NCBI GenBank assembly: GCA_964540515.1
Contig: CAZIMS010000001.1
Location: forward strand, 155,218 to 219,217
Direction: 5' to 3'
Origin: an uncultured Pseudomonadota bacterium
GTDB taxonomy: Bacteria; CALINM01
Length of the DNA: 64,000 nt
Each line of letters starts with the position of its first letter. The first letter of the stretch is position 1. Below, one piece after another: positions 37,949-48,822 of this stretch. The translations under genes were made by a program, and so were the position numbers. Under the pieces are notes generated by a model that was not told the DNA's origin, searched no databases, and worked only from the letters and a program-made list of their open reading frames with translations.

Positions 37949-38398
37949 TCATAGCACCTTAATCACTGCAACTTCGTCACAATCAGGAAACTTTGAACAC
38001 TTGATACAGTCGGACCATATTTTATGTGGAAGCTCTTTCTTGTCTATCTCTTTAAAATCAAACTTTTTAAAAAAATCTACCTGATAGGTAAGGGCAAATA
38101 TCTTTTTTAAACCTAACTGTATAGCCTCATCAAGACAAGCCATAAGAAGTTGAGAGCCATATTTAAACCTTCTTTTATCCTCTCTTACCATTAGAGATCT
38201 AACTTCTGCAAGGTCTTCCCAGCATATATGTAAGGCAGATACGCCCACTAACTCATCTCCCTCGTAAAAGACAAAATAATCTCTGATATTATCATAAATC
38301 TCATTTAAAGACCTTGGTAATAGCTCTCCTTTTTTTGAGCCTTCCAACAAAAGCTGATGAATATTCTTGCCATCAGAAACTTTAGCCTTTCTTAACAA
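37949..38398 (-). CDS. GNAT N-acetyltransferase (short ArgA-like)
   Basis: 149 aa. GNAT core plus C-terminal Cys cluster CIKCSKFPDC. Confidence 0.55.
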   Translation of the reverse strand: MLRKAKVSDGKNIHQLLLEGSKKGELLPRSLNEIYDNIRDYFVFYEGDELVGVSALHICWEDLAEVRSLMVREDKRRFKYGSQLLMACLDEAIQLGLKKIFALTYQVDFFKKFDFKEIDKKELPHKIWSDCIKCSKFPDCDEVAVIKVL

Positions 38399-40053
38399 TT
38401 ACTTTCTCCTTTCCTAAGTAGCTCTAAGGCATAATCCCTTCCCTTAGACTTTATATCGCCACCCAGCATTCGGGTAATCTCATTAACCCTATCCTCACCT
38501 ACAACCTTTCTAATAGACACTTCTATTCTACCATTTATTTCTGTCTTTTCCACTGTAATATGATTATCTCCAAAGACCGCCACCTGTGGTAAATGGGTTA
38601 TACATAGCACCTGATGCCTTTTTGAGATCTCTTTTAGTTTTCTACCTATCATCTCTGCCGTTAAACCACCAACTCCACTATCAACCTCATCAAAGATCAA
38701 TGTTCTTTTTTTCTCTTTAGGGATTGTATTTTTTATGGCAAGCATAATTCTTGAAAGCTCACCTCCAGAGGCTATCTTATTAAGAGGCTTAATCTCTTCA
38801 CTCCTGTGGGCTGTAAAATAAAACTCTATTAATTCATCACCCTTTTCTGACATCTCTTCTGGATAACTTGTTGCTATTTTTTTTATGACAACCTGAAAGT
38901 CTGCCTTTTCCATACCTAAATCTTTTAACTCTTTAACAACTTGTTTCTCAAAGACTTCCTTTTTTTCGAGTCTAATCTTTGATAACTGATCCATTACTCT
39001 TTTAATCTCTTCTCTTAAATTGTTTAGCCTTTTTTCGATGTCCCCTTTATAAACATCCAAATTTTTAAGTCTTTCAAGTCTCTCTTTTAGTTCTACTGAG
39101 GTTTTCTTAATCTCTGATATGGAGTTACCATATTTCTTCTTTAATTTATAGATGATATTAAGCCTTTCTTCGATCTCCTCAAGAGGTAATGTCTCCTCGG
39201 AGACCTTTTCAATAAAGTTTTTTATCTCTAAAGAATAGCTTTTAATCTCTTCCCTTTTTGTCTCAAGCTCTCGGCCTAACTTTTCTATCTCCGTCCCTTC
39301 TAAAGGAAGATCAGAGACAAGCCTTTCTGATTTTGAGATATTATCATAGACTGAGCAATCTCCTTCATATAGGTACTGATAGGCAATTGATAAGTTTTTA
39401 ATAATCTTTTCTCTTAGCATAAGTATCTCTTTTTTTTGTTTTAAATGCTCCTCTTCCTTGTCATCATTAAGATTTGCATTTTCAATCTCTTCTATCTGAA
39501 AGGATAAAAAATCAATCTCTTTCTCTCTCTCTTTTACTTTAGATATTATCTCATCAAGCTCCCTTCTAATCTCTTTTGCTTTCTTTAGTAAATTAGACAA
39601 CTCTTCCCGCAACTTTTCAACATTACAATAAAGATCAAACATCTCAAGATGATATTCGGCATTATAAAGCTCTCTCTCTTCACTTTGGCCATAGATATGA
39701 AGAAGTTTCTCTAAAAGAGAGGTTAGCCTTGTCTGAGTGGTAAGGGAATCATTTATATAATTTCTGCTTTTCCCGTCTTTTTGAATAACCTTCTTTAAGA
39801 TTATTTGCTCTTCATCTACCTCTTCAAAATCTAAGAGCATCTCTTCTCTCTCAAATACTGCTTCAACAATAGCCTTCTCTTCTCCAGTTCTTACAAAATC
39901 AGCACCACCCCTGTAAAAAAAAATAAGAAGGGCATCTACTAAAAGGGACTTACCAGCTCCTGTCTCACCTGTAAGAACATTTAGCCCTTCCTCAAAGGTA
40001 ACCTCTGCAGAGTTGATTATGGCAAAGTTTTTTACCCTAAGCTGATAAAGCAT
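38392..40053 (-). CDS. recN: DNA repair protein RecN
   Basis: 553 aa. SMC-like: N-terminal Walker A GETGAGKS, long coiled coil, C-terminal signature and D-loop. Confidence 0.9.
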   Translation of the reverse strand: MLYQLRVKNFAIINSAEVTFEEGLNVLTGETGAGKSLLVDALLIFFYRGGADFVRTGEEKAIVEAVFEREEMLLDFEEVDEEQIILKKVIQKDGKSRNYINDSLTTQTRLTSLLEKLLHIYGQSEERELYNAEYHLEMFDLYCNVEKLREELSNLLKKAKEIRRELDEIISKVKEREKEIDFLSFQIEEIENANLNDDKEEEHLKQKKEILMLREKIIKNLSIAYQYLYEGDCSVYDNISKSERLVSDLPLEGTEIEKLGRELETKREEIKSYSLEIKNFIEKVSEETLPLEEIEERLNIIYKLKKKYGNSISEIKKTSVELKERLERLKNLDVYKGDIEKRLNNLREEIKRVMDQLSKIRLEKKEVFEKQVVKELKDLGMEKADFQVVIKKIATSYPEEMSEKGDELIEFYFTAHRSEEIKPLNKIASGGELSRIMLAIKNTIPKEKKRTLIFDEVDSGVGGLTAEMIGRKLKEISKRHQVLCITHLPQVAVFGDNHITVEKTEINGRIEVSIRKVVGEDRVNEITRMLGGDIKSKGRDYALELLRKGESNC

Positions 40054-40871
40054 TACCTAATACCCCAGTGAAGTTTTGTCCTTAATATCTCGAAATAGTT
40101 TTTTGTAGGTGCTTTAACAATAGAGGTAAAAATATTTGAATCTTTAATTATAACTTCATCTTTTTTCTTTAGTTTTATCCCTTCCTGACCATCAAGAGTA
40201 AGAAAAACATCTGCATCACTGTTAATAATAGTTTTTATCTCAGAATCACCTGATATGACAATAGGTCTATTCGTGAGTGTATGGGGACAGATAGGACAAA
40301 GTATCATACATTTCAGTTCAGGTGTTAAGATGGGGCCGCCCGCAGAAAGGCCATAGGCAGTAGAACCTGTTGGAGTAGAGATTATTAAACCATCTGCCCG
40401 AAGGGAATATAAAAACTCATCGTTAACAAAGGTATTTATCTCTATAATTCTTGCTAAATCGCCTTTATTTATCACACAGTCATTTAAGACAGTATCTTTT
40501 TTTAACTCCTTATCGTCTCTCAAGACCAACACATCGAGCATCATCCTTTTGGAGATCTCATAATTTCCTTTAAGATAGTAGTCTTCAAAGGCTTTAAAGG
40601 CCTCTTCAGGGGATAGTTCCGTCAAAAAACCAAGCCCCCCCATGTTAATTCCTACGATAGGAATATTGCTCCCCTTTATAGTTCTTGCCGTATGTATTAA
40701 TGTTCCATCTCCTCCTATAACTACAATAAAATCACTGCCAGAAACTTCTTCTATTGAAAAGAAATTATCAAAAATTTTTGATAAAAGGTTTCTTTCCTCC
40801 AACCATTTGCTAAATTTTCTCGCATATATACGAGCCTTCTCGCTTTTCTTAGGAATAATGGCAATCTTCAT
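40053..40871 (-). CDS. nadK: NAD kinase
   Basis: 272 aa. GGDGTLIHTAR motif. Translationally coupled to recN. Confidence 0.85.
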   Translation of the reverse strand: MKIAIIPKKSEKARIYARKFSKWLEERNLLSKIFDNFFSIEEVSGSDFIVVIGGDGTLIHTARTIKGSNIPIVGINMGGLGFLTELSPEEAFKAFEDYYLKGNYEISKRMMLDVLVLRDDKELKKDTVLNDCVINKGDLARIIEINTFVNDEFLYSLRADGLIISTPTGSTAYGLSAGGPILTPELKCMILCPICPHTLTNRPIVISGDSEIKTIINSDADVFLTLDGQEGIKLKKKDEVIIKDSNIFTSIVKAPTKNYFEILRTKLHWGIR

Positions 40872-42276: not shown

Positions 42277-42349
42277 TTGTACCTCCCTAAAGATATAATA
42301 GAAAATAGTTTATTTCATTAATATTAGAAAGTTAAGTTAAAATATTCCC

Positions 42350-45226
42350 ATGAAATACAAATTTTTTTTGTTTTTTTCTATATTTTTTCTAATCCTACCA
42401 ATCAATAGTTTTGCCTTTAAGATTGTAGATCCCTCAGATAATTATAAAGTTATAGAGACAGATAATTTTAACTTTTATTACCCACCAAGACTTAAAAGCA
42501 CTGCCTATTATTTTGCTAACCTTTCAGAATCTATTGAGAAAGAGCTAACAAAAACATTAAAACTAAAAAATTATGAAAAAACCCATGTGGTACTTCTTGA
42601 CTATAGTGATAATTTAGATGGTCTATCGACAAACCTGCCTTACAACAGGATTTATCTAAATCTAACCCAACCAGATATCTTTTCCACTGTTGGTGAGTTT
42701 AATAATTATCTGCTTAATTTGTTTGTCCATGAGTACTTACATATACTTCTTTTGGATGCCCAAAAGGGATTTTCTGAAACAACAAGATCTATCTTTGGCA
42801 AACCAGCTATACCCTTTGAAAATCCAACGGCCCTCCCTTTCTTCCTTGTAATAGCTCCGCCTAATATTTTTTTGCCTCCTTGGTATCATGAGGGTTTTTC
42901 AACTTTTGGTGAGACCTACTTCACAGGCAAGGGTAGGGGAAACTTCTCCCTAATAGATTCCTATTTTAGAGCCTCAATTAAGGATAATAAACTATTAAAA
43001 ATAGACGAGATAAATGGAGATATAGGCAGATATCCCTATGGCCATGCCCCCTACTGGTGGGGACAAAAGGTCTTTGAGTATATAGAGAAAAAATATGGTA
43101 TTGAAAAGATTGGAGAGCTCATAGAAGACCACTCAAGCAGGTTCCCCTATTTTATAAACGCTGTTCCCCTTAGAAAATTTAATAAAAACTATTTGGAAAT
43201 CTATAATAGTGCAATAACTGAAGAGCTAGATAGACAAAAAAGAAATATTGATATACTAACCTCTTCCTCTCTAACAGTCTTTGAGCCTCTTTCATTGAAC
43301 TATGAAAGTATAAACTCCTTTGCCTTCTCGGGAGATAATAAACTACTTGCTATTGATGCCTTCGATCCTCACTCAGGCAATAGGCTTGTAGTCTACAAAT
43401 TACCAAACTATGAAAAGGTTCTTGACATAAAAAAACAACCCTCCTGTGGTAGCCTTATTTTTTCTAAAGATAGTAAAAAGATATATTTTACCCAGCTTAT
43501 ATTCAAAGATATCACAAAGAGACAGCAAGACATATTTGAGCTTAATTTAGAAGATAAAAATATAAAAAAACTAACAACTAACTTGCGTGTAAAAGATCTT
43601 TCTTACGATGAGCATAATGATGTATTTATAGGTATACAAAGAGAAAGCATAGTAGAAAATTTGGTTATCTTAGATAAAAATTTCTCTGTAGAAAAGCTTA
43701 CAGATTATAAAGAGAGCTATCTTTTGTCCCATCCAAGTCTCTCAAGGGATAACGAAAAGATTGTCTATATAAAAAAAGAGCTCAAAGGCACCTACTTTAT
43801 TACCCTCTATAACAGAAAAAACAAAAACATCGTTGAGATATATAAAAGCAATGAACAGTTAGCATTTCCTTTTTTCTCGGAGGATAGTAAAAAAATCCTA
43901 TTTGTAACGGATAGAAGTGGTGTCTTTAATTTGGCAGAGATTGATCTTGATAAAGGAGATGTAAATATCTTAACAAACCATTTTTATGGTATATTAAAAC
44001 CCATTTATAAAGAAGACTTTTTATATTTTCTTTATCCTAAAAGTAGTGGTTATGGTTTGGGAAGAACCAAAAAAGCATCTATCTACCCCCAAACTCCTGC
44101 TGTAATCAACAAAATTAGTTACCCTAATAGATTAGAGATTAAAGAGTCAAATAAAGAGTTTATAGAAAAAAGCTATAGCCCTACTGAAACACTTATGCCA
44201 AGATTTTTTCTCCCCAATATCTTTTCAGACCATGAAGGAACTGTTCTTGGCATCTTTACAGCTAATCAAGACGTATTAGGAAAACATACCTATTTTTTAG
44301 AGATCGCCTATGGTCTTTTGAGCTTTGATTTATATTATAAGCTTTCCTATGTAAATGAGTCATATAAACCCTCTATTAAGCTTTTGAGTTATTCCCAGCC
44401 AGTCTTATATTATAATTTCTATAGAATTGCTGATTTTTGGGAAAGAGAAAGTGCTCTTGACTTATTCTTCGACTTTAAGTTGCCCCTTCCTAAGTCTCCA
44501 AAGCTAAAATTAGGTCTACATTTAGAAGATAAATCCCCTCTCTCAGAACTTTATAACAGCTCTTTCTTTGGAATACCTATATTTAAAGGACAAAAAAACT
44601 ATCTCTATCTAACTTTTTCCTATGGTAGACTTACAAAGGCACCTCTTTCTTTAGGGTTAGAGTCAGGTTACAAATTAGAGTTAACCTATAATAAATACCT
44701 TGACTTATTAGGTTCTGACATTAAAGGTTATGAGTTATTATTATCTCTAGATAAATACTTTCAGATAGGTGAGATAGTTAACCACAGAACTTTCTATCTT
44801 GATTTTAATGTTGGCTACTCTAAAGAGACTAAGACAGCCCAAAACGCCTTTTCTCTTGGTGGTATACCTTCAATCACAAACCCATTTTATCTAAGAGGTT
44901 ATCCACACAACTTTCTTACAGGATCATATATATCAACTTTAACATTTGAATATAAAAATCCCCTATCATATATATTCAGAGGTCCTGACACAAAACCTAT
45001 CTTCCTTGAGAAGTTATATAATGTTATCTTTACTGACATGGGAAATGTTTGGAGTGACCATAGCTCTTTTAAATTTAATGAGATTAGGCAAAGTATCGGC
45101 TTGGAGATTAGAGCCGATGCTACAATAGGATACTGGGCAAAGATAACCCCTATATTAGGCATTGCTCGAGGACTTAACAAAGATGGGGCAACACAGTTAT
45201 ATTTTAATATAATATCAAACTTTTAG
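42350..45226 (+). CDS. secreted multidomain protein: HExxH zincin-like domain + PD40/TolB-like beta-propeller + C-terminal Omp85/TpsB-like beta-barrel
   Basis: 958 aa. Signal peptide MKYKFFLFFSIFFLILPINSFA. VHEYLHILL HExxH with downstream HEGFS. Central alternating beta-strand repeats (VYKLPNYEKVLDIK..., KIVYIKKELKG..., KILFVTDRSG...). C-terminal ~350 aa of amphipathic beta-strands ending in ...LYFNIISNF (OMP-type terminal Phe). Confidence 0.5.
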   Translation: MKYKFFLFFSIFFLILPINSFAFKIVDPSDNYKVIETDNFNFYYPPRLKSTAYYFANLSESIEKELTKTLKLKNYEKTHVVLLDYSDNLDGLSTNLPYNRIYLNLTQPDIFSTVGEFNNYLLNLFVHEYLHILLLDAQKGFSETTRSIFGKPAIPFENPTALPFFLVIAPPNIFLPPWYHEGFSTFGETYFTGKGRGNFSLIDSYFRASIKDNKLLKIDEINGDIGRYPYGHAPYWWGQKVFEYIEKKYGIEKIGELIEDHSSRFPYFINAVPLRKFNKNYLEIYNSAITEELDRQKRNIDILTSSSLTVFEPLSLNYESINSFAFSGDNKLLAIDAFDPHSGNRLVVYKLPNYEKVLDIKKQPSCGSLIFSKDSKKIYFTQLIFKDITKRQQDIFELNLEDKNIKKLTTNLRVKDLSYDEHNDVFIGIQRESIVENLVILDKNFSVEKLTDYKESYLLSHPSLSRDNEKIVYIKKELKGTYFITLYNRKNKNIVEIYKSNEQLAFPFFSEDSKKILFVTDRSGVFNLAEIDLDKGDVNILTNHFYGILKPIYKEDFLYFLYPKSSGYGLGRTKKASIYPQTPAVINKISYPNRLEIKESNKEFIEKSYSPTETLMPRFFLPNIFSDHEGTVLGIFTANQDVLGKHTYFLEIAYGLLSFDLYYKLSYVNESYKPSIKLLSYSQPVLYYNFYRIADFWERESALDLFFDFKLPLPKSPKLKLGLHLEDKSPLSELYNSSFFGIPIFKGQKNYLYLTFSYGRLTKAPLSLGLESGYKLELTYNKYLDLLGSDIKGYELLLSLDKYFQIGEIVNHRTFYLDFNVGYSKETKTAQNAFSLGGIPSITNPFYLRGYPHNFLTGSYISTLTFEYKNPLSYIFRGPDTKPIFLEKLYNVIFTDMGNVWSDHSSFKFNEIRQSIGLEIRADATIGYWAKITPILGIARGLNKDGATQLYFNIISNF

Positions 45227-45235
45227 GATGGTTAT

Positions 45236-46183
45236 ATGAATATACTTGTAGTAGGTCTTGGGGCTATAGGTACCGTTTTTGCCACATTTCTTAAATCAGC
45301 AGGTCATAGTGTATATGGGTTGACAAAAGAAAAATACCTGAAGATATTAAAAAAGGGGTTAACTGTTACAGGAATATTTGGTGATAGGAAGGTTTTACTC
45401 GATGACGTAGTAGAAAGTCCTCAAGCTCTTTCAAATATAAACTTTGACCTTATTATTATCGCTGTAAAATCCTTTGATACAGAGAAAGCCATAAGTGATA
45501 TAAAAGGACTAATGGCAAAGGATAGCTTCCTCTTGACTGCTCAAAACGGTTATGGTAATTACGAAACCGCTGGAAGAATATTAGGCTTTGATAAAGTAAT
45601 ACTTGGAAGAGTAATCTTTGGCTCCCGACTTATTGAGCATGGTTCAGCTGAAGTTACTGTAATTGCTGATGATGTAATTATTGGAAACCCCCACAGACTG
45701 ATAGACGAGGGAATCTTGAAAAACATTGCCCAGATGATTAATGAAGCTGGCATCCCCACTTCATATTCCGATAGGGTCTATCAGATATTGTGGGATAAAA
45801 TACTTTATAACTGTGCCTTAAACCCCTTAGGAGCCCTTTTAAGGTGCAACTACGGCAAGTTAGCAGAGGATGAAAATGCAAGAAAAGTAATGAATAAGAT
45901 CATTGAAGAGATCTTTTACGTAACCAAAGCCAACAATATAGAACTAAACTGGCAAAATAAGGATGATTATATTAAACACTTTTATGAAAAACTAATACCA
46001 CCAACAAGAGAGCACTTCCCTTCTATGTATTATGATATAATCTCAAACAAAAGAACTGAGATTGATGCTTTAAACGGTGCTATTGTCAAACTTGCCAACG
46101 TAAAGAATATACTTGCTCCAACAAATGAAGATATAACACTATTAATTAAGGCTATAGAAAAAATAAAAAAGGAAGAGAGATGA
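45236..46183 (+). CDS. panE: 2-dehydropantoate 2-reductase (ketopantoate reductase)
   Basis: 315 aa. MNILVVGLGAIGTVFA Rossmann motif and ApbA C-terminal domain. Second PanE-family gene in the window. Confidence 0.7.
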   Translation: MNILVVGLGAIGTVFATFLKSAGHSVYGLTKEKYLKILKKGLTVTGIFGDRKVLLDDVVESPQALSNINFDLIIIAVKSFDTEKAISDIKGLMAKDSFLLTAQNGYGNYETAGRILGFDKVILGRVIFGSRLIEHGSAEVTVIADDVIIGNPHRLIDEGILKNIAQMINEAGIPTSYSDRVYQILWDKILYNCALNPLGALLRCNYGKLAEDENARKVMNKIIEEIFYVTKANNIELNWQNKDDYIKHFYEKLIPPTREHFPSMYYDIISNKRTEIDALNGAIVKLANVKNILAPTNEDITLLIKAIEKIKKEER

Positions 46184-48822
46184 GAATGAACTGGTATACA
46201 AAAGAGATAGAAGAGATTTATCAAACCTTAAATAGCACTTCTTACGGTCTATCCTATGCAGAGGCCAAAAGGCGTCTTGAAGAGGATGGTTTAAACGAGC
46301 TAAAGGCAAAGAAGAGAAAGACGCCTCTAATAATGATCTTAAACCAGTTTAAAGATCTACTAATAATTATTCTTATTATTTCTGCAATCATAGCTGGCAC
46401 CTTAGGAAAGCCCATAGACTCTCTTGCTATACTTGCCATCGTAGTTCTTAACGCAATAATAGGTTTTCTTCAGGAATATAAAGCAGAACGGGCAATTGAA
46501 GCACTAAAAAAGCTTTCTACACCCTTTACCACCGTAATAAGAGAAGGAAAAGCAACAACAATCCCTGCTAATGAGCTTGTGACAGGAGATATTGTACTAC
46601 TCGAAGCAGGGCAGATAGTACCTGCCGATATAAGATTAATTGAATCAGCGAACCTTAAGATTGATGAATCTATATTAACAGGAGAGTCAGTACCTGTTGA
46701 AAAAGATATAAGAAAGCTATCGGAGATAGATCTACCTCTTGGAGACAGAAAAAATATGGTCTATCAAGGTACGATAATCACCTATGGCAGAGGAAAAGGG
46801 ATAGTTGTTGCCACAGCAATGAATACAGAGATGGGTAAGATAGCCTCTCTTTTACAAGAAGATATTGACACAAAAACACCTCTTCAGCAAAGACTTAATG
46901 TTTTCAGTAAAAAATTAGCTGTTGTAATACTTATAATCTCTGCCATAGTCTTTTTAGCAGGCATAATAAGGGGTGAAGAGATTGTTTTTATGCTTCTTAC
47001 GGCTATAAGCTTAGCTGTTGCTGCGATACCAGAGGCTCTGCCTGCAGTAATCACCATTACCCTTGCTCTTGGTGCAAAAAAATTAGTAAAACAAAAGGCT
47101 TTGATAAGAAAACTACCTGCTGTAGAGACCTTAGGTTCTATTACCTATATATGTTCTGATAAGACAGGTACCCTTACTTTAAATAAGATGACGGTAGAAG
47201 AAATCTACACTAATAACAAAATCTTCCTTACCAATGAAATAGAGCCTTCTTTTGCGCAAAGGGATTTAAAAAATTTTTTTATAGCAATGGCTCTCTGCAA
47301 TGATACAAATAAAAACAGTGAGAATAAGATAATAGGAGACCCTACGGAGACAGCCATCTATGAGTTGGCTGAAAAGAAGGGCTTTTCAAAGGATGATTTT
47401 GAAAAAATTCTACCAAGAGTTTATGAAATTCCCTTTGACTCTGATAGAAAAACCATGACAACTATCCACGAAGATAAAGAAGGTCTATTTAACGGAAAGA
47501 CTGTAGCGATTACCAAGGGAGCAATTGAGGTCATACTTTCTAAGGCAAAAAACATCTTGATAGACAATGAACTAAGAATTATAGATCAAGAGGCTATACA
47601 CCGAACTATAGAAAAGATGGCAGGAGATGGATTAAGGATTCTTGCTTTTGGGATTAAGCTTTTTGATAGTTTTCCTGATGACACCTCCCCCGAGTACATA
47701 GAAAAGGATCTCACTATACTTGGTTTAATTGGACTTTTAGATCCACCACGAGATGAGGCAAAAACAGCCGTATCTTTGTGTAAAAAGGCAGGTATAACTC
47801 CTGTCATGATAACAGGCGATCATCCCATCACTGCAATGGTTATATCAAAAAGATTAGGAATTTTGTCGGAGACAGACAAAGATACAAAGTGTGTAATTAC
47901 TGGTAGAGAGTTAGAGAGACTACCATTAGAGGAGTTTGAAGAGCGAGTTGAAAAGATAAGGGTCTACGCAAGGGTTGCGCCTGAACAGAAGCTAAAGATT
48001 GTAAAAGCATTAAAAGATAAAGGGCAATATGTGGCTATGACTGGAGACGGAGTAAATGACGCGCCAGCCTTAAAATATGCAGATATTGGTGTTGCAATGG
48101 GGATAACTGGAACGGATGTGTCAAAAGAATCTGCCTCAATGATACTTCTTGATGATAACTTTGCTACCATTGTAAAGGCAGTTAAAGAAGGAAGAAGGAT
48201 TTTTGATAACATACTTAAGTTCATCGTCTATTCCATGACCTCTAACGCAGGAACATTATGGGCAATATTTCTTGCCCCCTTTTTTGGATTGCCTCTTCCA
48301 TTACTCCCTATACAGATTTTGTGGATGAACCTCCTTACCGATAGCCTGCCTGGTCTTTCTTTAACGGCAGAAGTCCCTGAACCCAATATTATGGAAAGAC
48401 CACCGAGAGACCCTAAGGAGGGTATTTTCTCTCAGGGAAGGGGCCTTTTTATCTTAAAATATGGGTTATTAATAGGGATATCAACTCTTTTATTTATGTA
48501 CTTCGCTAAAATAAATGATTTAAAATGGCAGACAATGATTTTTACTGCCCTTGTAATTGGCAGGATGTCTGTTGTTATTAGCGTAAGGTCTTTTATTGAC
48601 TCCGTTTTTAAAATCGGTTTCTTTTCAAATAAGGCTTTAATATTGTCCATCTTGTTAACTATTACATTACAACTCTTAATTGTTTATGTACCTGCCTTTA
48701 ATCATATATTTCACACCGAGCCCTTAAGCTTAAAAGAGCTTAAGTATACTCTTGCTTTAGCATCTATAGTCTTTATTGCTACAGAGCTTGAAAAATTAAT
48801 AAAAAAGGGAAAAAAAAGATAA
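46180..48822 (+). CDS. P-type cation-transporting ATPase (type IIA Ca2+-ATPase-like)
   Basis: 880 aa. DKTGTLT phosphorylation motif. TGDGVNDAPAL hinge. TGES actuator motif. 10 TM segments. Confidence 0.85.
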   Translation: MRMNWYTKEIEEIYQTLNSTSYGLSYAEAKRRLEEDGLNELKAKKRKTPLIMILNQFKDLLIIILIISAIIAGTLGKPIDSLAILAIVVLNAIIGFLQEYKAERAIEALKKLSTPFTTVIREGKATTIPANELVTGDIVLLEAGQIVPADIRLIESANLKIDESILTGESVPVEKDIRKLSEIDLPLGDRKNMVYQGTIITYGRGKGIVVATAMNTEMGKIASLLQEDIDTKTPLQQRLNVFSKKLAVVILIISAIVFLAGIIRGEEIVFMLLTAISLAVAAIPEALPAVITITLALGAKKLVKQKALIRKLPAVETLGSITYICSDKTGTLTLNKMTVEEIYTNNKIFLTNEIEPSFAQRDLKNFFIAMALCNDTNKNSENKIIGDPTETAIYELAEKKGFSKDDFEKILPRVYEIPFDSDRKTMTTIHEDKEGLFNGKTVAITKGAIEVILSKAKNILIDNELRIIDQEAIHRTIEKMAGDGLRILAFGIKLFDSFPDDTSPEYIEKDLTILGLIGLLDPPRDEAKTAVSLCKKAGITPVMITGDHPITAMVISKRLGILSETDKDTKCVITGRELERLPLEEFEERVEKIRVYARVAPEQKLKIVKALKDKGQYVAMTGDGVNDAPALKYADIGVAMGITGTDVSKESASMILLDDNFATIVKAVKEGRRIFDNILKFIVYSMTSNAGTLWAIFLAPFFGLPLPLLPIQILWMNLLTDSLPGLSLTAEVPEPNIMERPPRDPKEGIFSQGRGLFILKYGLLIGISTLLFMYFAKINDLKWQTMIFTALVIGRMSVVISVRSFIDSVFKIGFFSNKALILSILLTITLQLLIVYVPAFNHIFHTEPLSLKELKYTLALASIVFIATELEKLIKKGKKR

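Follow-up and report, generated by a model that had tools for sequence, protein, structure and literature searches.

A low-GC member of the WD40-like Omp85 subfamily joins a predicted zinc-peptidase domain and a TolB-like propeller to an outer-membrane barrel

What is the function of a protein that carries a zinc-peptidase-like domain, a beta-propeller and an outer-membrane barrel in a single chain, and on which side of the membrane does its enzyme-like part lie? The question is raised by an open reading frame (ORF) at 42350..45226 on the forward (+) strand of a 64,000-nucleotide stretch of DNA from an uncultured Pseudomonadota bacterium (contig CAZIMS010000001.1, positions 155,218 to 219,217), and this whole stretch is referred to below as the window. 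A preliminary description, made from the letters and their translations, had located the ORF exactly (+ strand, 958 aa; ATG start, TAG stop) and had considered it a possible surface peptidase of unusual architecture. By its architecture and template classes, compared with the published description, the gene belongs to the WD40-like Omp85 subfamily as a divergent member of low GC content, and its predicted gluzincin active site is intact and under strong purifying selection. The probable reading of the protein, in our view, is an active metallopeptidase of this subfamily that is tethered to the outer membrane and faces the periplasm, and we weigh it below against other readings.

The subfamily was defined by Heinz and Lithgow, who in 2014 sorted 12,869 Omp85/TpsB proteins into ten bacterial subfamilies (Front Microbiol 5:370, PMC4104836). 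One of the ten, named 'WD40-Omp85' or 'WD40-like', has architectures that combine PF07676 repeats with PF01103 (Table S2), and Phyre2 modelling of members such as H1XQ58, D0MEQ5, D5CSQ4, A9FGN9 and B4UC98 gave BamA/TamA barrel, TolB and 'best aminopeptidase hit' templates (Table S3), the last being 1z5h, 3qnf, 4fgm, 4kxd and 4ar1 at ~99% confidence (PMC4104836). The main text of that paper discusses only the propeller, as a 'BamA-BamB fusion', and the peptidase appears just as a column of Table S3 (PMC4104836). The subfamily was summarised in 2024 as having 'divergent WD40 and peptidase domains' (PMC11358297), and Hanson et al. 2024 placed it among the conserved Omp85 subfamilies that 'have not been well characterized' and are 'intriguing targets' (PMC11116518). 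The template classes recovered here are those of Table S3: PD40 repeats with TolB as their best template precede an Omp85 barrel, and an aminopeptidase-like region lies ahead of the propeller.

Relatives of the protein are numerous. A word-indexed search returned 20 full-length homologues, 920-1020 aa long and 20-68% identical, and one degenerate pattern around HExxH retrieved at least 574 confirmed relatives from a one-genome-per-species collection, distributed over Geobacteraceae (including cultured Geomonas), Nitrospirota, Gallionellaceae, Myxococcota, Acidobacteriota, Leptospira, Aminicenantes and Desulfurivibrio. An exhaustive hidden Markov model (HMM) search scored all of the 150 best cluster representatives below E 1e-186, and nearly all of them matched as a single full-length stretch. 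The architecture that had seemed unusual is therefore that of a subfamily catalogued in 2014, with full-length relatives in all of those species genomes. Homologues are carried by Geomonas silvestris and G. limicola (WP_183355229.1, WP_183361709.1), and the Geomonas orthologues are named 'BamA/TamA family outer membrane protein' in RefSeq and 'Bacterial surface antigen (D15) domain-containing protein' in UniProt, and homologues also match the Pfam families Tricorn_N/Tricorn_2nd, DPPIV_N and Peptidase_S9_N. A second candidate family turns on PF00149, which we take to be the calcineurin-like metallophosphoesterase domain. The 'Metallo' Omp85 subfamily, called 'metalloproteases' in the 2014 paper, is defined by PF00149 and was rejected as a home for the protein because that is a different domain (PMC4104836). 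The zinc-peptidase-like domain sits in the WD40-like subfamily, where it is recorded in Table S3 only, and the 2014 naming can mislead annotation.

The evidence for an enzyme comes from aa 24-303 (42419..43258; this and all further features of the gene are on the + strand), a domain with a gluzincin (clan MA) peptidase fold. Its HEYLH motif (aa 127-131; 42728..42742) lies within helix 120-135 of the AlphaFold2 (AF2) model and contains the predicted zinc ligands H127 and H131 and the general base E128. The 'glutamate helix' WYHEGFSTFGE (aa 178-188; 42881..42913), within model helix 177-192, supplies E181 as the predicted third ligand, plus E188, and Y235-W-W-G238 (43052..43063) offers a candidate transition-state-stabilising Tyr. 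The homologous ORFs of 79 loci, mostly from a genome scan, were aligned with the query to give 80 sequences, and H127, E128, Y129, H131, D136, N172, P176, E181, G182, Y235 and G238 were each found in 80/80, at an identity to the query of only 23-34% in most of the 79 loci. W178, E188 and R196 are each retained in 79 of the 80, and position 184 is A in 73. Since H127, E128, H131, E181 and G182 are invariant in these 80 sequences and also among the 20 full-length homologues, HExxH is not a chance motif, and the zincin domain with an HExxH...E triad proposed in the preliminary description is borne out by the conservation of that triad. The proposed metal site, HEYLH with a downstream HEGFS, holds for HEYLH, E181 and G182 and fails for H180, a variable position (I in 38, H in 20 and L in 11 of the 80) within a conserved unit that reads W-x-x-E-G-x-A-[TV]-x-x-E.

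The fold of this domain was revealed by structure comparison only, because its sequence profile searched against PDB sequences gave no match even at E 10. Modelled alone, the domain reached a predicted local distance difference test (pLDDT) of 87.1, and the comparison ranked ERAP1 at 15.1, PSA, APN and LTA4H at ~14, tricorn-interacting factor F3 at 12.7, M9 collagenases at 10-13.5 and thermolysin at 10.0. Peptidase_MA_2 was matched by 3/20 full-length homologues and by 5/14 N-terminal domains searched alone (best E 2.6e-6). An hhalign alignment with E. coli PepN sets HEYLH on HEYFH (297-301), E181-G on the KEG of LKEG, and P-Y235-x-x-G on V-Y-E-K-G, with a 26-residue insertion needed between the two zinc-binding helices. 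In PepN we take H297, E298 and H301 to be residues of HEYFH, E320 to be a zinc ligand and Y381 to be the catalytic Tyr.

The domain thus shares with the M1 family its gluzincin catalytic fold, the HExxH motif, the predicted Glu ligand and a candidate for the catalytic Tyr. From the second His to the Glu there are 49 residues here and 33-49 across the 80 sequences (modes 33 and 48), against 18 in M1. The strand region at aa 90-102 has no conserved Glu and follows the consensus NG-x-A-T-x-L-P-Y-N in the 80 sequences, the PepN alignment stops short of GAMEN, and Pfam Peptidase_M1 (PF01433) has no match in the window protein, its homologues or the N-terminal domains. Because of the spacing and the lack of a conserved Glu at the GxMEN-equivalent strand, the domain is M1/M30-like in fold and is not a member of M1. 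The same two features, GxMEN being an exopeptidase element of M1, would make an endo- or oligopeptidase more likely than an aminopeptidase.

The peptidase domain is followed by a six-bladed PD40/TolB-like beta-propeller at aa 312-574 (43283..44071), modelled as 24 strands in six blades of four. Single-sequence searches with the window protein were marginal for PD40, Omp85, TolB and BamA, and family-level profiles were needed: alone, the protein gave Pfam PD40 at 22.9 bits, just over the cut-off, TolB in the PDB at E 2e-4, and faint NCBIfam matches to TolB, Dpp5 and BamA. PD40 is matched in 17 of the 20 homologues, and the profile of the family alignment finds TolB in the PDB at E 5e-36, so that the propeller anticipated in the preliminary description stands as a domain, at ~265 aa and not the ~350 aa first given. 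TolB proteins are the closest propeller relatives both by sequence profile and by structure. For the TolB equivalog TIGR02800 the score is 32.6 bits where 343 are required, and the propeller is the one part that matches.

Between propeller and barrel lies a linker of 46 residues (aa 575-620; 44072..44209), which in the AF2 model contains one 3-residue strand and one 4-residue helix and no beta-alpha-alpha-beta-beta unit. The POTRA-like linkers that the preliminary description had proposed to look for are thus absent from the model, and there were no POTRA Pfam families among the matches of the 20 homologues. The protein therefore lacks the POTRA domains of the wider Omp85 superfamily, as do the recognised noNterm, WD40-like and Metallo subfamilies (PMC4104836). 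Although the linker is otherwise variable, its end and the start of the barrel carry a strongly conserved motif, Y609...P617-R-F-F620-L-P622 (44174-44215), in which Y609 and P617 are kept in 100% of sequences, position 620 is W in 93% (F here) and P622 is kept in 97%. This motif might contact the barrel either at the periplasmic rim or at the lateral seam.

The remainder of the chain (aa 621-958; 44210..45223) is an Omp85 barrel of the BamA/TamA/Sam50 type ending in ...YFNIISNF, modelled as 16 long strands over aa 621-957, the first with only 6 residues. Loop L6 (aa 825-859, 35 residues; 44822..44926), which joins strands 11 and 12, contains L848-R849-G850-Y851, corresponding to the Omp85 (V/I)RG(F/Y) motif, with R849 and G850 in 80/80 and Y or F at 851 in 78/80. 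Its partner, the FxDxG motif of strand 13 (F894-T-D896-M-G898; 45029..45043), is conserved at 94-99% per position (F 75/80, D or E 79/80, G 75/80), and in 75 of the 80 sequences the chain ends in F, L or W. An hhalign alignment with E. coli BamA sets LRGY on VRGF and FTDMGNVW on FWDMGTVW, the VRGF and FWDMG motifs being those that lock L6 inside the BamA lumen. The family profile finds BamA in the PDB at E 2.3e-5, and Pfam Omp85 (PF01103) is matched by 6/20 homologues at E<=0.01 (best 6.7e-9). In the AF2 model of the full protein, computed from the 20-sequence alignment, pLDDT was 88.6 and the predicted template modelling score (pTM) 0.88. The Omp85-type C-terminal barrel with an outer-membrane-protein-like terminus was thus correctly recognised from the start. 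Two other barrel classes were considered and rejected: a TpsB protein of the FhaC/CdiB type is recognised by two POTRA domains, a TpsB barrel and a partner exoprotein gene, which do not describe this protein, and a classical type Va autotransporter has a 12-strand barrel and a beta-helical passenger, where this protein has a 16-strand Omp85 barrel with zincin and propeller.

The N-terminus is consistent with export. The start codon and N-terminus agree with those of the 20 full-length relatives in the alignment, and aa 1-22 (42350..42415), MKYKFFLFFSIFFLILPINSFA, form a typical Sec-type signal peptide whose cleavage, placed with the -3/-1 rule and without a predictor, would likely fall after SFA (MKYKFFLFFSIFFLILPINSFA|FK). 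AF2 models a low-confidence helix at aa 1-23, and homologues have comparable hydrophobic N-termini. Lipoprotein anchoring is ruled out because the signal peptide contains no Cys.

On which side of the outer membrane would the exported N-terminal domains lie? If the AF2 barrel is threaded so that strand 1 begins on the periplasmic side, its long connections are L4 (20 aa), L6 (35 aa) and L7 (10 aa), matching BamA, and the connections at the opposite rim are turns of 3-9 aa. Since both ends of a 16-strand barrel lie on one side of the membrane and the long loops fall at the BamA extracellular positions, the N-terminal ~600 residues would be placed in the periplasm. In PlpD, the only enzyme-Omp85 fusion that has been tested, the enzyme domain was shown by experiment to be periplasmic (PMC11116518). 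The suggestion that the protein is a surface-anchored, self-inserting surface peptidase is therefore unlikely, as both the barrel loop pattern and the PlpD precedent place the N-terminus in the periplasm.

Taken in order along the chain, the probable reading would work as follows. Sec would export the protein and the BAM complex would insert its barrel, guided by the barrel's own C-terminal aromatic signal, as knowledge of the family would lead one to expect. The zinc peptidase and propeller, ~600 residues together, would then be tethered beneath the barrel by the POTRA-less linker. Zinc would be held by H127, H131 and E181, with E128 predicted to act as general base and Y235 to stabilise the transition state, and the propeller would probably limit access to the active site or recruit unfolded chains or peptides, as in tricorn, DPP-IV and prolyl oligopeptidases. 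The substrates of the peptidase would be envelope proteins or peptides that it meets at the outer membrane, and the barrel may place the enzyme where unfolded outer-membrane proteins (OMPs) arrive. That the functional Omp85 hallmarks are kept, with the RGY of L6 locked to FxDxG, suggests that the barrel is more than an anchor.

A more specific role is offered by analogy with BepA, a zincin that attaches to the BAM complex and removes stalled OMPs by proteolysis (PMC13067283), of whose pairing with BAM the protein is possibly a one-polypeptide analogue. In its strongest form, which we regard as rather doubtful, the protein would be an OMP quality-control device in which the barrel, its L6/FxDxG lock intact and its strand 1 short, captures the beta-signal of stalled or misfolded OMPs at the lateral seam and the propeller feeds the unfolded chain to the gluzincin for degradation. 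That such a device stands in, as one covalent unit, for BepA plus BAM in lineages such as Geobacteraceae, Nitrospirota, Gallionellaceae and Myxococcota is a proposal in which we have equally little confidence. If it were true, the peptidase domain, with its 33-49 residue spacing and no GxMEN, would found a distinct gluzincin family. If the peptidase handles unfolded OMPs at the barrel, the protein would represent a fused alternative to BepA-BAM and another non-insertase use of the Omp85 barrel.

Among the rival explanations, the one that survives best takes the protein for a non-proteolytic assembly factor, in which the propeller is an interaction platform, the barrel an insertase or translocase and the zincin-like domain structural or chaperone-like. 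The functional Omp85 motifs of the barrel and the short strand 1, as expected of a weak BamA-like seam, agree with such a role, and BepA itself also has a protease-independent chaperone role. It is the main-text reading of the 2014 paper (PMC4104836). Were the zincin-like domain purely structural, however, conservation of every gluzincin catalytic residue in all 80 sequences, at the low identities given above, would not be expected. The TolB-like propeller has six blades, against eight in BamB (PMC11358297), and there are no POTRA domains for partner binding. We therefore consider an assembly factor unlikely as the whole account, noting that it is compatible with the metallopeptidase reading and that the two are not mutually exclusive. 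What is added here to the 2014 description is the invariance of the peptidase active site across 80 diverged homologues, which argues for a real enzyme and not just a scaffold in the style of BamA-BamB.

A surface-displayed protease in the manner of type V secretion, with the Omp85 barrel translocating peptidase and propeller across the outer membrane, is distinctly unlikely in our view. The patatin-Omp85 protein PlpD was first explained in this way, and Heinz and Lithgow raised the idea for enzyme-Omp85 fusions (PMC4104836). TpsB relatives do translocate polypeptides, and the peptidase fold resembles secreted lugdulysin, collagenases and thermolysin. The PlpD model has been overturned, though, by the periplasmic location of its enzyme domain (PMC11116518), and the 600-residue cargo here would be a compact alpha/beta domain and a closed six-bladed propeller, not a vectorially folding beta-helix. 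The loop lengths, which put the N-terminus on the periplasmic side, and the 46-residue linker, whose conserved motif adjoins strand 1, also speak against translocation.

Gluzincins of the M1, M30 and M9 types act on peptide chains and, to our knowledge, are not known to cleave peptidoglycan cross-links. A TolB-like or Tol-Pal-related tether, whose propeller would bind Pal, peptidoglycan-associated partners or TolA-like boxes and whose peptidase would trim peptidoglycan peptides or lipoprotein links, is very improbable on this account and because the score falls far below the TolB equivalog cut-off, no tol or pal genes lie nearby in the window or at four inspected loci, and a gluzincin replaces the TolB N-terminal domain, notwithstanding the kinship of the propeller to TolB in profile and structure and the TolB-Pal-BamA connections mentioned by Heinz and Lithgow (PMC4104836).

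Several points weigh against the periplasmic metallopeptidase reading. The domain assignments of the window protein depend on family-level and structural evidence: a Pfam scan of its own N-terminal domain returned no family, its PF01103 score of 21.7 bits lies under the gathering threshold of 24, and the hhalign alignments are weak for both PepN (E 0.008, probability <10%) and BamA (E 0.004, probability <10%). The orientation follows from topology rules and the quality-control role from analogy. Our literature search found no experimental study of any WD40-like Omp85 member. Genomic context gives no substrates or partners, as no neighbours are shared among the three distant homologues whose loci were inspected.

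Upstream in the window, a divergent intergenic gap of 73 nucleotides (42277-42349) separates the gene from a gene for a HIBADH-like dehydrogenase. The preliminary description had assigned the gene its own promoter in this gap, which is unsupported, since a sigma-70 consensus scan of 42277-42349 gave no site, though the gap is indeed a divergent intergenic region. Downstream, panE and a Ca-ATPase gene follow as described: a PanE-family gene starts 9 nucleotides beyond the stop (TIGR00745 at 235 bits, above cut-off), and the gene for a Ca-ATPase-like P-type ATPase (type IIA) comes next with a 4-nucleotide overlap. Because a terminator scan 3' of the gene found none and the next gene lies so close, co-transcription with panE is likely. 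The ATG at 42350 is preceded by no Shine-Dalgarno-like sequence in 42320-42349 (...gttaaaatattcccATG), and panE has GGATGG 5 nucleotides upstream of its start.

When the flanking genes of the window were compared by tblastn with 84 loci, full synteny was found only in the two closest relatives. The window neighbours that recur near distant homologues lie at 38392-40871 and 46180-48822. In six Gallionellaceae/Nitrosomonadales loci nadK-recN lies upstream of the gene, at ~0.4-4.7 kb, and in seven Nitrospirota loci a P-type ATPase 42-61% identical to that of the window lies less than 6 kb away (~0-5.5 kb). Both recurrences may reflect chance or residual synteny, and they are too weak to build on because orientation and spacing differ from the window. 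The neighbourhood thus says nothing on function, and the gene has no special genomic context.

On the scale of the whole window, the gene stands at a switch of coding strand: between 6.5 and 42.3 kb almost every long ORF is on the - strand, and from 42.35 kb onward they all use the + strand. At ~42-46 kb the cumulative GC skew passes through its minimum, a combination to be expected of a replication origin. A replication origin at the switch at ~42.3 kb was considered and rejected, as DnaA boxes are not enriched (22 found versus 18.6 expected). A 93-aa antisense ORF (44899-45180, - strand) lies wholly inside the barrel-coding region and is most likely a spurious product of AT-rich sequence, and at its 3' end lies the one perfect DnaA-box match of the whole window (44899-44907). 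The whole 64-kb window contains no transfer RNA genes and no Rfam families at the gathering threshold.

Comparison with known systems places the protein among several partial relatives. TolB is a soluble periplasmic protein of the tol-pal operon, and this gene has no tol or pal neighbours. Tricorn and S9 peptidases likewise join a PD40-type propeller to a peptidase; they are cytosolic or soluble serine peptidases, whereas the protein described here would be a membrane-anchored metallopeptidase. Identity to the M1 enzymes PepN, ERAP1, LTA4H and F3 and to M30 lugdulysin is 10-14%; the N- and C-terminal domains of M1 are missing here, and the HExxH-Glu spacing and the lack of a conserved GxMEN-type Glu also differ from M1. 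The resemblance to BepA, an M48 zincin with TPR repeats, is a functional analogy only, that of a periplasmic zinc peptidase with an interaction scaffold at an Omp85 barrel. In comparison with BamA, TamA and Sam50, at 12-17% identity, the peptidase and propeller replace the POTRA domains. PlpD of P. aeruginosa provides the best experimental topology precedent, as both proteins carry an enzyme fused N-terminal to an Omp85 barrel; PlpD is a patatin lipase with one POTRA domain and forms a homodimer, whereas here a gluzincin and a propeller are joined to the barrel with no POTRA domain. From the WD40-like Omp85 subfamily itself there is no architectural difference, with the window protein's own Pfam Omp85 score falling just under threshold. 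The gene is thus an ordinary member of its family, for the study of which the invariant active site is a useful pointer.

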